DNA of 64,000 nt. Source: Eledone cirrhosa. Taxonomy: Eukaryota. Shown one piece after another: positions 305 to 63,051 of this stretch. The stretch lies in assembly GCA_964016885.1 (NCBI GenBank), contig OZ024743.1, positions 258,726,001 to 258,790,000 of the forward strand, given 5' to 3'. Positions within the stretch are counted from its first letter, which is position 1. Each line of letters opens with the position of its first letter. The notes under the pieces are model-generated. The model was not told the origin of the DNA. It made no database searches and was given only the letters and a program-made list of their open reading frames with translations. Made by a program: the position numbers and the translations under genes.

Positions 305-750
305 AATTAATTAGAATATGTGTTAGTTTATGACCGACACTTTACTATGCAGGGTAGAGCACTCAACGAAGTACACAAGTGGGTCTGTTTTCTCTGGAGT
401 ATATTTATAATCATGAAGTACAAGTCAATGGGTTATAAGTCACTTCGTGAATTCATAATCGCAGTTATATATATTTCGGTGATAACAGTTATGCAATAGC
501 TATGACCTCAACAGACAGCTAGAAGTTGAACAGAAAAACATAAAGAAGAAATAAAGCTTACTTCTGCTGTTATGATTCATTGATATGCCCCGGACTAATA
601 TTCATTGATATGCCCCAGTGCTTTCTCAAAGCAACATATGAGGTCATAACTGTTGCATAACGGTTATCACCAAAATATATATAACAGCGATTATGAATAA
701 ACGAAGTGAATTATAACTTGTTGACTTGTACTTCATAATCTATACTATAA
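305..750. mobile_element. Non-coding inverted-arm element with degenerate HHR (461-519, minus)
   Basis: 405-510 is inverted at 636-745. Minus strand reads GCTGT-CTGTTGA-GGT..ACC-GAAA-TATATA-TA-ACTGC (ACAGC in the other arm). Begins at a (TA)n tract. Confidence 0.6.
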
Positions 751-939
751 AGCTGACGGCCGTATTTAAGTAACAAACTTTCCGCCTTGCGACTGGAACA
801 AACGGCACCAAATTTGCACCATAGATGTAACTTTTTCCAAGTAAGAAAGTGAGGGTATTTTTGTCTACTGAATTTTGTTAAAAGATTAAAGACATTATTC
901 AAATATTCACTTCTTTTAAATTTTCAAATGTCAACACTT

Positions 940-1120
940 CCGGTTATACAACATTCCTAACGTCTTCACGAACCAAAGTATCATCTTCCTGTTTTCTTTC
1001 GGTTGCAACGTTTTTCGAAATATTTGCTTCTGCGTTCACAGATTGATTTTTTAGTTTCAGAAGATCCCGTTAAGGGTGAAAGCAGCGATTCTTTGCTTAA
1101 ACTTTAATCTGTTATTTTAA
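940..1120 (+). mobile_element. PLE pseudo-LTR fragment, family P
   Basis: Matches the terminal repeat of the PLE at 57262-60070. HHR-like motif at 1053-1103. Ends in (TA)n. Confidence 0.8.
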
Positions 1121-1144
1121 TATATATATATATATATATATATA

Positions 1145-1313
1145 ACGGAGGAAATGTGGTAAGGAACCAGGTGGACCATAACGCACCAAAGTACTCAATA
1201 CTTGAGGTAGTAGAGTGGGTAATAGGAACCAGTAAGACCCCGACAGCTGAGCTCAAGCCGTTTCGACGGCTAATAACGGCTTGAGCTCAGCTGTCGGGGT
1301 CTTACTGGTTCCT
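1145..1313. mobile_element. (TA)n-flanked fold-back element, family B (second copy 45815-46010)
   Basis: About 40-bp inverted arms (1222-1262 / 1275-1313), with (TA)n on both sides. Confidence 0.7.
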
Positions 1314-2789
1314 ATATATATATATATATATATATATATAATTATATATTTGTGTACAGATATTTTTGCATACACAAAAACAAAATATAAACAAACGTAT
1401 TTATTTCACGAAAGCACGGGTGGCTTATCCTCATTGTTACTGCCGATATGCCACCCAAAAAGTCCTAGCCTGGCCGCAAGATGAGATTTTCCAGAAGAAA
1501 AAATGTTACTAGAGCTACAGAGAGACTAAGCTTCGCGATTACCATCAACAAAGCTCAGGGTCAAACCCTAAATGTGGCTGGCCTTCATCTGGGAAAACCA
1601 ATGTCAATTGTATGTAGGATGCTCTAGGGTGAGCTCGCCAAACAATCTCTTCATCTTTGCTCCCGAGTGCCGAACAAAAAATATTGTATACTCTGAGGAT
1701 CTAACAATGTAATTTATGTATTTTCTGTTACTTGGAATTTCCATTATGGTTGTACAAATTATTGTAAAGTTTGTTAAAAAATGTGTTCTCTGTTCAACCT
1801 TTATTGTTGTAACTATCAATTTTCTTTAATGTACTGGCTGACAAAAGAAATCTACAATGAAAGAACATCTTAAAGTTTACCCAAGCTAAATGTTGTATTT
1901 ATTAACATTTCTATCTGCTGGTTCTTAGCAAGCTTACTGGCGCTTTAGTATGGTATTCAATTCTCATATCGTTTTTGATTGATATGGTGCATATATCGCA
2001 GCTATTCATATGTTTTAAACATTAGATAACGATTGCTGATGTATATTGTACGACAGAATTAGCTGAAAAATATTTTGAATGAACAAATAAAAGAGATATA
2101 AAAGAGAGATGTTTGCTGGTTGGTTCCTTCGCGTATCACACGAAAAAAAACGAAGTGACAATCGGAAAGTATGTACAGGATAGGGATAAGAGTATATCCA
2201 GGAAAGTTTATTGATACTAATTTTATAACACCAAAGATGTATGCTAACCAACCTGACTGCTATTTCTAGCAGGTTGGGAATCAACCATAAGGGATTCTCT
2301 CTCGAGTTCGTTGTCAGTGATGATCGTGTTTCGCGGCCTATATCTCCGATTCCAACGGTGGTTTACACACACACACGCACACGTACAAACGCTCACACAG
2401 GCACACACACGAACACTCACACAGCCACACACACACATATATATATATATACTCACATAGCCACACACACATATATATATATATATACACACACACACAT
2501 ATATATATACACACACACACACATATATATATATATATATATATATATATATATATATATATACACAAACACACACAAACATACACACACACAATACACA
2601 CACACTGTAAACAAGATAATGCATTCAATACAGACGTTTTCTCTTATGCCGGTCTTCTCTTATCATTTGTTAACCCTGGCAAAGCTGGATACCTCAGCTA
2701 GTTATATATATGTAACACCTGTCCTTTCATTTCCACTCTCACCACTCTCACAGGCACCAACAGTTGATTCCGTATCTGCCACTCCTTTA

Positions 2790-3790
2790 CCTGCATCCAC
2801 ATGGTCTATACCCTCCGCTGTTCGCTTTGTGGCTCCCTTATTCATCGGACAAACAGGACACCGTTTGACAGACCGTTTTGCTGAACATTTGAGGGATACA
2901 CAACTCGGTATGGATACTCCCGTCGCTGATCATTTCCATTCCCCAGGTCACTCTTCCCTACATGTCTCAGTCCTTGGTGTCCTTTTACATCACTGTTCAC
3001 AGGCCTCGTGCACCAGGACTGAACAGAGTCTGATTTCTCGCTTTGCGTCCTGTTTCCCTCATGGAGTCAACTCCTCTCCTCAATTTCTTTAATATTACAC
3101 ACATACCTTCTTGCTTACTTCTCTACCCTTTGCCCCATCACGTTTACCCCGTCAGTTATCACACACATGCTTGTACATTCACCCCATGGCTCTCTTATGG
3201 TCAGAAACATATACTCTTACAGCTGATACAGACCAACAAAATATGCACACACACCTCTACTTTTCCCTTCACAGCTCTGTATACACACACTCCCTTATAT
3301 TAACATACTTTTGCTCACAGCTTCATACTTACAAGCACACACACACACACACACACACACACACTCTCCTTTACTCCCTTATACTCACACATATCCTCTT
3401 AGCTTCATACAGACATATAACAACACACACACATGCATACGCATGCACACACGTATAGCTCTATATACAAAACAATTTTTTTTTTCCATTTCAGGTAGAT
3501 GCGCTCCATCATCCACTTTTCTAAAAAAAGTATATCATACACAAAACACCAGCATCAACAGTTTTCCAAGAGATGGCAACATGAATGAACCTGTTATTTT
3601 TCTCTGAAAACAATTTTTCCAATTCCACCCTACCCGTCTCTTCAATCTTTCTAATTTCTCTTTCTTATGATGAAGGACTAGCGTTCGAAACGTTAAGACC
3701 CTCTTCCAGCTATTACAAGCGTTAAACGAATATATTCCTTCTATATACCGTCCCGATTATGTTGTTATTTCTGTTTACAAGGTATACTTT
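2790..3790 (+). mobile_element. Penelope-like element 3' part: GIY-YIG endonuclease C-terminus plus 3' UTR with HHR-like motif (3663-3697)
   Basis: LFIGQTGHRLTDRFAEHLRD...PVADHF..GH...GVN peptide. A paralog lies at 7043-7900 on the minus strand. Confidence 0.85.
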
Positions 3791-4532
3791 GCCTCTCATC
3801 CTTTCAAAATCAATAAAAAAAAAAGTACCTGTCCAGAACTAGTGTTCATTCTTCCTTTCTATTGAGGAAATGGGCTCCACCATATTTAAAATACCCAAGA
3901 GATGGTGTATGTCACTACAGAGCCCTTGCGTGTCTATCTAGAGCACATGTCCATACATACATACATGCATCCATACACAGGTCCCTACATACACAGATCC
4001 TTGCGTACACAGATACATACATATATACAAACATGATGATGAATTCTGCATCTCCATTTTGAGATTTGCTATCACTTGATCCCTTTCTCAAACATGGGTG
4101 TCACAAACATGCACGCATGCATACATACATACGTACATACATATGTACATATATTTTTTTCTCCCTTTTTCTGTTTATTCCTGAAAAGCAAACATTGTTT
4201 TAATTTCAATACAACAAAATGTTACAAAGGTAAATCTTGATGTGTTCATGGACACTTGCTGGAGATTTCCATACAAATGTTCAGTTAATCTTTCTTTATG
4301 ACAAAATTTGTGATATCGTTCTTGAGTTCTGGTAGATGGGATTGTTTGGAGTAAATTTGAACTTCAGTGTTTTACATAGAATATCGATTCAATATCATTT
4401 AATTGATTTGATAAGTTTATGTATATATACTTCATTTTTTGTATTTGGCAGCCATGACCCTCCTAAAGTATAACTATATATGCTAGCGTGGAAGAACGGA
4501 TGTAAAACGGTGACGATGATGATATATATATA

Positions 4533-61542: not shown

Positions 61543-61656
61543 ATATATATATATATATATATATATATATATATATATATATATATATATATATATATAT
61601 ATATATATATATATATATATATATATATATATATATATATATATATATATATATAT

Positions 61657-61800
61657 AGTGATCGGACACTGGAAGGTAATATCCGTAGTGGTAGAGCACT
61701 CAGTCCAAGGGACGAGTTAGGTAGAAGTGGTTATACAACAGTTAGTTCACCATACCGAGAACAATTGTTTCACCTTCGCGGATCTTCAGCTCGGGATGTA
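61657..61800 (-). mobile_element. Family I element with type I HHR at 61751-61798
   Basis: Minus strand CCGAG-CTGAAGA-TCCGCGAAGGT-GAAA-CAATTG-TT-CTCGG. Confidence 0.8.
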
Positions 61801-61965
61801 TATCTATACATATATATATATATACATATATATGTATGTGTGTGTATGTATGTATATGTATATATACATGTGTGTATTTGTATTATATATATATATATAT
61901 ATATATATATATATATATATATATATATATATATATATATATATATATATATATATATATATACA

Positions 61966-62295
61966 TATCAACTAGAAATTGATTAACATATGAATAAACA
62001 TATGAAACAATCACAGGGGATAATTTGTAAAAGTGTGTAAGCACACATAGCTAGGTAGGTAACTAAATAAAGTTTAACTAGAGCTTCAAAAATACATACG
62101 TTATAAAATGATTAATCTTCCTTGTATATATTCCCTTAAAGAAATATATTCACCAATTAATCGATTGTTTCATATGTTTATTTATATGTCAATCAATTTC
62201 TAGTTGATATAAAATGCTCGGATCTATTCATTAGAATCTTAGAGCATATTTTACGGGTGATATGGCGCATGTCTATCTGGCATGACACCCTTAAT
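61966..62295. mobile_element. Inverted-arm element (no HHR visible)
   Basis: 61966-62012 is inverted at 62163-62210. Confidence 0.5.
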
Positions 62296-62430
62296 TTAAT
62301 TTAATTTAATTTAATTTAATTTATCTTAATTTTGTATATATATATATATATACATATATATGTGTGTGTGTGTATGTATATGTATATACACATGTGTATT
62401 ATATATATATATATATATATATATATATAT

Positions 62431-62639
62431 AAGGAACGATCGATCGGACCGAGGGAACAAGGTTTCCGTTGGTCTTTCCAATTGCTAATACTATCTATCG
62501 GTCGCAACTCCAGGTAGAAGAAGCAATGTGAAATAAAGTGTCTTGCTCAAGCACATAACGCATCGCCTGGTCCAGGAATCGAACTCACAACCTTACGATT
62601 GCGAATCCAATTCTCTAACCACTCAGCCACACGCCTTCA
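62431..62639 (-). mobile_element. tRNA/CORE-head SINE (family of 22226-22445)
   Basis: Reverse-complement match. Confidence 0.8.
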
Positions 62640-62855
62640 CTCTCTCTCTCTCTCTTTCTCTCTCTCTCTCTCTCTCTCTCTCTCTCTCTCTATATATATA
62701 TATATATATATATATATATATATATATATATATATATATATATATATATATATATATATATATATATATATGTATATATATATATGTATATATATATGTA
62801 TATATATATATGCATATATATATGTATATATATATATATATATATATATATATAC

Positions 62856-63051
62856 GTTATTCCGGGTTGAGTCGGAGGTAACCACAGTAAGTAAGGTACT
62901 CAATACATAGCAGAGTATAACAGTTTTAATATAGATGAGATTCTACAGGACTAGAACTGTTTCATTCATTAGAAATCATCAGGAATCCCAATCAGAGATT
63001 CCTGATGATTTCTAATGAATGAAACAGTTCTAGTCCTGTAGAATCTCATCT
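62856..63051. mobile_element. Family C minimal insertion: two HHRs head-to-head (62937-62987 -, 62995-63047 +)
   Basis: GAGATTC-CTGATGA-TTTCTAATGAAT-GAAACAG-TTCTAGTC-CTGT-A-GAATCTC. (TA)n flanks. Confidence 0.85.

Follow-up and report, generated by a model that had tools for sequence, protein, structure and literature searches.

How do repeats that carry hammerhead ribozymes come to lie as two arms joined head to head within (TA)n microsatellites? This question is raised by a stretch of 64,000 nt of the Eledone cirrhosa genome (GenBank assembly GCA_964016885.1, contig OZ024743.1, positions 258,726,001 to 258,790,000 of the forward strand), referred to here as the window, in which an original prediction made from the sequence alone had listed twelve such elements. 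The analysis presented here makes it likely that these insertions arise when the enzyme of a Hydra-type Penelope-like element (PLE) primes both cut DNA ends on one RNA, which for four non-coding families would be a circle.

Hammerhead motifs were searched with a type I hammerhead descriptor, and 30 local shuffles of the window were used as control. The window, which is rich in (TA)n, contains 35 motifs compared with 0-2 per shuffle. After collapsing of arrays 19 motifs remain, about three times the average of eight control blocks at fixed positions (400 kb in total), which hold 37 motifs against 1 in their shuffles. The density of 35 motifs in 64 kb is high, as had been predicted, but not unique, the richest control block having 14 motifs in 50 kb. 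Self-alignment by BLAST found two inverted arms at all 12 listed places, divergent at every one (minus left, plus right). The arms are joined 5′ to 5′ with their 3′ ends outward in 11 of the 12, the exception being the element at 9445, whose left arm stops within its own ribozyme and adjoins an arm of family C rather than (TA)n. Apart from this arm and the right end of the element at 305, which lies outside any (TA)n run and belongs to an element with two degenerate ribozyme cores, the 3′ ends mostly run into (TA)n as had been described. The number of families had been overestimated: instead of more than ten unrelated ones, grouping by self-BLAST gave eight for the twelve elements (nine if F2 is counted apart). 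Family A alone comprises the elements at 4912, 24076 and 57262, the piece 959-1119 and further small pieces; D comprises 9445 and 33464, and C comprises 9172, 28434-28949 and 62856. F2 (43806) is about 75% like F (32288), and a further family, H (61657), had not been listed. Unit periods of 310 (14007), 543 (32288) and 525 (43806) were confirmed, while the period given as about 465 is 472 with a variable internal TA tract (9445, 33464).

The evidence on the mode of insertion comes mainly from family E, which is represented in the window by the following features:
14007..17685, minus strand: tailed-end arm of family E, 11.9 units of the 310-nt non-coding hammerhead unit; 3′ end at unit position 169, into a TA-rich microsatellite
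17684..18993, plus strand: short-end arm of family E, about 4.2 units, with a 2-nt overlap with the left arm; 3′ end near unit position 121-139, into (TA)n
17912..17942, plus strand: hammerhead core of E, minimal and of type I, helix III palindromic; cleavage predicted after 17942, with unit position 1 following the cut

Unit position 1 was set directly after the predicted cut, and the two kinds of outer end were termed short (S) and tailed (T). The 3′ ends of E arms lie at about 126-139 (S) and at 163-172 (T). Whereas the elements had been thought to end at different unit positions, each family has two fixed 3′ positions, variation is limited to the inner 5′ ends, and circular permutation of end points was not seen at the 3′ ends. 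In the first search 21 E loci were obtained, 19 of them two-armed and all in the order minus then plus; 18 of these 19 combine one S with one T end. In order to avoid a bias from array length, an independent set was formed from the first 40 of 992 exact matches to the T|(TA)n junction, all on C1. The partner arm ended at S in 32 of these T-selected loci, at T in none and elsewhere in one. The other seven gave no call: two run off the stretch, in one the T arm beside an S arm was too short to map, and in four a second arm was not seen: one of these adjoins an assembly gap, two have an arm that exceeds the stretch, and one is single-armed. E is flanked by (TA)n on both sides, in which a target-site duplication cannot be read.

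The same pairing recurs outside E. One tailed and one short end are present in 11 of the 12 listed elements, and across loci S+T pairs were counted in 7 of 8 two-arm loci of F, 9 of 10 of A, 25 of 26 of B, 5 of 6 abutting or nested pairs of C, 7 of 14 of G (5 cut by the locus edge), 5 of 10 of H and 4 of 8 of I, the remainder ending elsewhere; the queries for B, C, F, H and I contained the tail, so that one end was fixed by the query. The tailed end of B is at position 436, and tails range by family from about 30 nt (E) to 150 nt (G). The sole T+T case, L255 of family H, has no true end there and continues into the next coding unit. In the control blocks (TA)5 occurs within 300 nt downstream of 31 of 36 motifs and upstream of 22, with a background of 23%; an automatic inverted-repeat orientation test was too noisy there for a clean count. 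Between S and T, the motif GAGYRC is present in 6 of 10 tails (B, C, the non-coding G, H, I and J; e.g. 6334-6425 and 54853-55005), and the tails of A, D, E and F have one-off variants of it. At the 37 control-block motifs it was found downstream in 6 and upstream in 2. Having been noticed post hoc, it is a candidate recognition signal.

Many E haplotypes co-exist, and the arms of a locus agree at marker sites in 28 of 29 informative loci, while pairs of arms from different loci agree in 94 of 963 cases. In 8 of 39 E loci, ten variant sites in total are private and occur in all passes of the two arms (up to 18 of 18); private here means absent from the others of these 39, out of at least 992 loci. 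Similarly, the F locus L200 has three private variants fixed in 13-14 passes. A private variant would become fixed throughout a locus because a monomer circle turns the variant of one donor unit into all passes, while a linear multimer would hand unit-specific variants to both arms in register. Non-fixed variants amount to 0.16 per unit in E, and among 29,180 positions covered by both arms one in-register variant shared by the arms was seen (L366) against 15.5 expected, a value which assumes donor multimers as varied as the present arrays and is too high if donors were young. The low count favours a monomer circle as the template of E and falls short of proof.

These data bear directly on the possibility that the PLE primed at two ends on a long uncut tandem transcript from a homogeneous donor array. 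For such a template speak the in vitro work on an Anolis PLE, where ribozyme cleavage is dispensable and unprocessed RNA is the main substrate (PMC11167929), the weak cutting by minimal hammerheads (PMC4209133), the 8 of 9 Xenopus dimers that remained uncut (bioRxiv 10.64898/2026.07.22.740005), the variant of L366 in register in both arms, and the fact that a young homogeneous donor also yields one haplotype in both arms. The near absence of in-register variants and the eight loci with locus-fixed variants argue against it. S and T would moreover recur in every unit of a multimer, 5′ truncation would shorten the arrays in each generation unless they were regenerated, and a copied donor junction was present in 0 of the 21 + 40 E loci. 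An uncut template is thus considered unlikely.

It is quite improbable that a monomer or short stub was inserted and grew later by unequal exchange and gene conversion, or that the units were made alike by assembly polishing. Period-7 repeated variants in L349 and repeats in L369 and L348 do show later duplication or conversion, and local amplification is favoured for retrozyme tandems (bioRxiv 10.64898/2026.07.22.740005). Nevertheless, each of the two inverted arms spans several units, their lengths are non-integer and their junctions unique, the E arrays differ from their locus majority at 0.05% of sites, which leaves little time, and haplotypes vary between loci rather than between arms; polishing would tend to erase differences between loci, not to create locus-fixed ones.

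The inner ends were analysed in the same loci. The 112 5′ ends of E are dispersed around the unit, and no pile-up was found at the cut site (3 within 5 nt, 3.6 expected). Arm junctions mostly have overlaps of 0-5 nt, with two 16-nt overlaps at internal inverted repeats, and the unit positions of the two inner ends of a locus are unrelated. Of 33 E loci, 21 have the longer arm on the T side and 12 on the S side; the S arm is also the longer one in linear families (L184, L186, L195). Fold-back self-priming of one cDNA, or an antisense template, with the endonuclease then trimming one end to S, has been put forward in its self-priming form for the head-to-head junction palindromes of rotifer Penelope elements (PMC3846280). 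It would give same-haplotype arms by construction and suits the loci with a longer T arm, but an arm made in this way cannot exceed the copied strand or gain a tail, as it would have to where the S arm is longer. The unrelated inner ends and the single case of an in-register variant, which should be common to both arms, speak against it as well, so that fold-back is rated as highly improbable. In twin priming of the L1 type, the inverted arm is derived from another region of a single linear RNA, located upstream. The insertions do not have this structure: their two arms are copies of one sequence and begin at almost one position.

Taken as a whole, priming of both cut DNA ends on one RNA by a Hydra-type PLE enzyme, with a circle as template in the four non-coding families, is the likely origin of the head-to-head (TA)n insertions. 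Tandem transcripts would be cut by their type I hammerheads, probably as dimers, helix III being mostly palindromic, and the monomers would be ligated into circles. A protein with reverse transcriptase (RT) and GIY-YIG endonuclease would cut both strands of (TA)n, and complementary DNA (cDNA) would start at the two internal RNA sites S and T, 30-150 nt apart; cutting and start sites of this kind have a precedent in vitro in another PLE. Per insertion, S is found on one side and T on the other, with one haplotype in both arms. Each RT would then circle the template, displacing the cDNA ahead of it over a variable length and producing arrays of up to about 13 units. The inner ends meet at varied unit positions, presumably by end-joining of the two cDNAs, and later duplication or conversion has enlarged a few long arrays. 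The remaining families of the window would be ordinary truncated ends of coding PLEs, inserted by the same route. Inferred in this scheme are RNA cleavage and circularisation, as well as which helper acts and that it is a dimer. The stricter version, in which an asymmetric enzyme dimer starts two reverse transcriptions, one per strand, flanking the tail of one hammerhead-made circle in every insertion, seems to us evenly poised between right and wrong.

Several points weigh against this reading, in addition to the limits given above for private variants and for the expected in-register count. In the exceptional E locus L041 both ends are of the short type, the arms represent two variants and a filler of 23 nt is present; L358 has two haplotypes within one arm. 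The variant of L366 is placed as a multimer template would give it, and the repeated variants of L348, L349 and L369 indicate that arrays change after insertion. In older families the arm-mate was nearest in just 10 of 30 comparisons; long overlaps often do have shared private variants in these families. Eighteen of the 112 E 5′ ends lie 10-29 nt after the cut site against 7.2 expected, in a window chosen post hoc; these positions overlap a long predicted helix, and the excess could mean that some templates were linear and cut. Circle, transcript and self-cleavage are predictions from genomic sequence, little sequence other than the ribozyme is common to D, E, F or G and the coding ends, and in the Anolis PLE in vitro the ribozyme is dispensable, unprocessed RNA is used and the start site did not differ between strands (PMC11167929).

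The families for which a circular template is proposed are D, E, F with F2, and G. Besides E, they are present in the window as:
9450..11303, plus strand: family D arm of 3.7 units (472-nt unit with internal TA tract); tailed end at 11303, truncated minus arm at 9449-9554, nested in a C/K element
33465..34472, unstranded: two-arm insertion of family D; left end tailed (unit position about 314), right end short (about 243)
32289..33440, unstranded: family F, with a non-coding unit of 543 nt; left end short (72), right end tailed (188), cores at 32427 (minus) and 33180 (plus)
43807..44620, unstranded: F2, with a period of 525; left end short, right end tailed, cores at 43935 (minus) and 44380 (plus)
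54852..57188, unstranded: family G (2.64-kb non-coding unit); tailed arm 54852-55380 (minus), short-end arm 55381-57188 (plus), cores at 55108 (minus) and 57085 (plus)

The units of D (472 nt), E (310 nt) and F (543 nt) are repeated head to tail through the ribozyme, most arms reading through the ribozyme site; F2 (period 525) is a closed unit as well, and in L185-L187 the G unit was found closed, with a length of 2639 nt. The descriptor detected a single type I hammerhead per unit in D, E and F2, while the F core was identified by motif listing. PLE protein matches were absent from the window coordinates of D, E and F/F2 and from G. Accordingly, these four families are described as closed non-coding ribozyme units resembling retrozymes, with self-cleavage and circles as predicted properties; G, whose unit is outside the reported retrozyme range of 51-972 nt, is better called a large non-autonomous PLE. 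All four insert with the end signature of coding PLEs, which is consistent with the use of (TA)n-targeting PLE enzymes. Circular folding is more stable than that of shuffles (z of -8.4 for D, -4.1 for E and -4.9 for F), which is weak evidence because the antisense strand is more stable as well (-3.4, -4.1 and -5.4).

At least 992 insertions of E exist genome-wide, as counted by the exact T|(TA)n junction (control 0), and the arms at the 61 examined loci (21 + 40) hold unit sequence only. The E variant of the window (18069 and 18153, corresponding to E positions 127 and 211) is not the majority allele, either in the genome or in four public runs, and represents a single young sub-lineage whose identical arrays occur on several chromosomes; a search for an older E variant gave no match. 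The view that all families are merely truncated ends of coding PLEs, with no non-coding parasite, is true of A, B, C and H and probably of I, and D, E, F or G may have a coding parent elsewhere in the genome, at most 40 candidates having been scored per search. Against it stand the head-to-tail closure of D, E, F and G without a PLE protein match and the number and content of the E insertions; for E as a propagating form it is refuted, a coding parent being informative only about its origin, and for the window as a whole it is barely credible. The idea of ribozyme RNAs parasitising a (TA)n-targeting PLE machinery, which the original prediction had proposed for a diverse population of non-coding RNAs, is accordingly kept for D, E, F/F2 and G. 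A, B, C and the unlisted H are fixed 3′ ends of coding PLEs, and I probably is too. These families are represented as follows:
57263..60070, minus strand: family A, 5′-truncated broken coding PLE, candidate Hydra type; tailed end at 57263, inverted short-end arm at 59543-60070 (plus)
about 59555-58476, minus strand: coding part of this element, with C-terminal part of the RT, CxCX5C linker and GIY-YIG
4913..5945, unstranded: two-arm insertion of family A, terminal repeat only; tailed left, short right
24078..25137, unstranded: two-arm insertion of family A, terminal repeat and 3′ untranslated region (UTR); short left, tailed right
6026..6425, unstranded: family B, end of a coding PLE, candidate Hydra type; short left, tailed right, core at 6238 (plus)
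62856..63050, unstranded: two-arm stub of family C; tailed left, short right, cores at 62982 (minus) and 63002 (plus)
9172..9449, minus strand: tailed arm of family C, likely the 3′ end of a K element with coding end at 13194-13750
305..745, unstranded: two-arm insertion of family I with degenerate cores; tailed left, short right, probably the end of a coding PLE
61657..61800, minus strand: tailed arm of family H, end of another coding PLE, candidate Hydra type; core at 61789

The coding fragment 57263-60070 has the same layout as the other elements, as had been noted. Near-full coding frames of family A were found in L199 and other loci, and the sequence of B serves as terminal repeat in a PLE whose stop-to-stop frame in L189 measures 707 aa; some parents have long 3′ UTRs (about 1.6 kb in the L189 element). 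The coding PLE K has C as its terminal repeat. Among 16 loci fetched for K, the coding part bears C as an inverted arm at its 5′ end in 6 (L321, L324, L327, L331, L332, L335), C lies downstream in sense in 2 (L323, L329), and in L326 C runs into the start of the K frame. For H, RT-endonuclease frames lie directly upstream in L258, L259, L266 and others; for I, a GIY-YIG endonuclease was found upstream in 1 of 25 loci. In L255:1640-3140, L260 (oriented; both family H) and L326:933-3230 (K) the terminal repeat passes the tailed position straight into the start of the coding frame, which shows the partial-tandem, circularly continuous form of these coding families.

The motif order is RT followed by a C-terminal GIY-YIG in L199, L189, L258 and L324, and all four parents (A, B, C/K and H) have the CxCX5C linker and DKT in place of DKG. 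RWR is present in A (L199), and the RW(K/R) pattern had no match in the scanned stretches of B, K and H. On inspection, no CxxC was seen within the GIY-YIG core of the A and B translations, which lack the CCHH motif. Hydra-clade elements are marked by RT then GIY-YIG, the CxCX5C linker, DKT, RW(K/R), hammerheads and (TA)n insertion (PMC8557442), and by these motifs Hydra is the candidate clade for the parents of A, B, C/K and H. A Naiad assignment was rejected, as the endonuclease is C-terminal and hammerheads are present, in contrast to the N-terminal GIY-YIG and missing canonical hammerhead of Naiad elements; Neptune was replaced by Hydra on the motif evidence. A Pfam scan gave no significant family in the four PLE translations, and a homologue search returned 75 relatives, none with a clade name, Octopus and Argonauta being among those named.

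Further observations concern the structure of these families. The region 9172-13750 reads as one K/C coding PLE remnant, with D inserted in its internal microsatellite, about 330 nt lost at the left junction, and E in the microsatellite just beyond. An interpretation of the C arm and D array (9172-11303) as one chimeric insertion of two RNAs was dropped, since both outer ends are tailed and nesting with deletion fits. All descriptor-scored copies of the family A hammerhead have CAGAAGA instead of CUGAnGA (U4 to A) together with a true helix III hairpin. Such cores lie at 1058 (plus), 5073 (minus), 5877 (plus), 6881 (plus) and 60005 (plus) of the window and in the control loci L284, L285, L288 and L314; CAGAAGA is possibly a natural variant of the hammerhead core.

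Other repeats of the window include further small inverted two-arm elements (1145-1312, 45818-46008, 52190-52359, 42523-43385, 34633-35072 and 61969-62206). Among these, J (1145, 45818) resembles another hammerhead-ended family cut at the core and has 19 matches in the 400 kb of control blocks. PLE fragments of Penelope/Poseidon type with direct terminal repeats were identified at 2838-3094, 7612-8041 and 19759-20968, and hammerhead-like cores at 3667 and 7159. Remnants of LINEs (long interspersed nuclear elements) and of DNA transposons, the latter presumably mariner- and pogo-like, lie between the PLE insertions (36136-41990, 60107-61542, 31313-31954, 52594-54436). An Rfam scan of the window contained no hammerhead family among the best 150 of 243 matches, nearly all of which were microsatellite-driven microRNA models below the gathering score. 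E was also obtained as a 340-nt go-back contig in three runs of unknown kind; this contig was not used as evidence for a circle, as an abundant LINE had similar depth in these runs and trace genomic DNA explains it. A look-up of RNA holders listed none for E, and neither result bears on expression.

The route by which PLEs form tandem and inverted insertions and the role of their hammerhead are stated as open (PMC8557442, PMC11167929), and the mobilisation of retrozymes by PLEs has so far been based on co-occurrence and sequence kinship. E, being very young, high in copy number and rich in haplotypes, acts like a barcoding experiment made by nature: a retrozyme is seen with ends of the PLE type, its start sites are paired near-strictly, and the two arms share a template. 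This narrows the mechanism, which can now be tested directly with a small substrate and enzymes of a candidate clade. The 37 motifs in 400 kb of control sequence indicate that much TA-flanked unknown repeat in this 3-Gb genome is PLE-derived. If the dimer and circle reading is true, one mechanism would account for retrozyme arrays, the pseudo-LTR (long terminal repeat) of PLEs, the inverted arm and the one-sided tail, the job of the PLE hammerhead would be to make the circle, and the 310-nt E circle with its approximately 1000 very young copies would be a minimal natural substrate.

With regard to known systems, D, E and F are like the retrozymes described in PMC7229834, PMC7761336 and bioRxiv 10.64898/2026.07.22.740005 in being small non-coding tandem units with one type I hammerhead each, for which a circular RNA template, mobilisation by PLEs and kinship to PLE terminal repeats have been proposed. 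Animal retrozymes as PLE parasites are therefore already published (PMC7229834; bioRxiv 10.64898/2026.07.22.740005), as are their circles with PLEs as likely helpers (PMC7229834, PMC7761336) and the link to PLE terminal repeats (bioRxiv 10.64898/2026.07.22.740005), and dual minimal hammerheads on opposite strands were noted in 2014 (PMC4209133). In bioRxiv 10.64898/2026.07.22.740005 retrozymes are tandems only, mainly from vertebrates, with local expansion favoured, whereas the insertions studied here are dispersed and two-armed. Their arrays have S and T ends of the PLE type and were multi-unit at insertion; the words "inverted" and "octopus" do not occur in PMC7229834. Retrozyme circles have been shown in coral, mussel and axolotl; those proposed here are predicted from the genome sequence.

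Head-to-head arms with a one-sided tail are typical of PLEs (PMC8557442, PMC3846280). Endonuclease-containing (EN+) PLEs have, as here, an inverted 5′-truncated copy at the 5′ end, joined head to head and often with the tail on one side, as well as partial tandems, microsatellite targets and terminal repeats that suffice for mobilisation in trans. Their tail is optional and 30-40 nt long, whereas here it measures 30-150 nt by family and is near-strictly paired with a short end; self-priming was proposed for them, while the present data favour two primings on one RNA. The Anolis Poseidon PLE in vitro (PMC11167929) likewise cuts and extends both strands of an AT-rich target from two internal start sites bounding a tail, and the purified protein is a predicted dimer. 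It differs in belonging to another clade and using a linear RNA, with the pairing of start sites per insertion unreported and a ribozyme that is dispensable in vitro. The Hydra clade is mainly cnidarian with a few families in other aquatic phyla, and section 11 of PMC8557442 names no cephalopod Hydra family. The non-autonomous Chlamys PLEs such as MRC1 (PMC8557442) are non-coding dependants with terminal repeats and multicopy head-to-tail structure, to which G is similar; they are algal, mostly without hammerheads, and have 3′ sequence in common with autonomous partners, while for D, E and F the comparison with the tested coding ends gave no common sequence of this kind. In the open-access literature no description was found of S and T ends paired near-strictly, of retrozyme arrays ending in two PLE-type arms, or of both arms sharing one template. 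The parts of the system are known; new here is the S+T pairing together with the single template, and the advance lies in mechanistic evidence and not in a new class of element.

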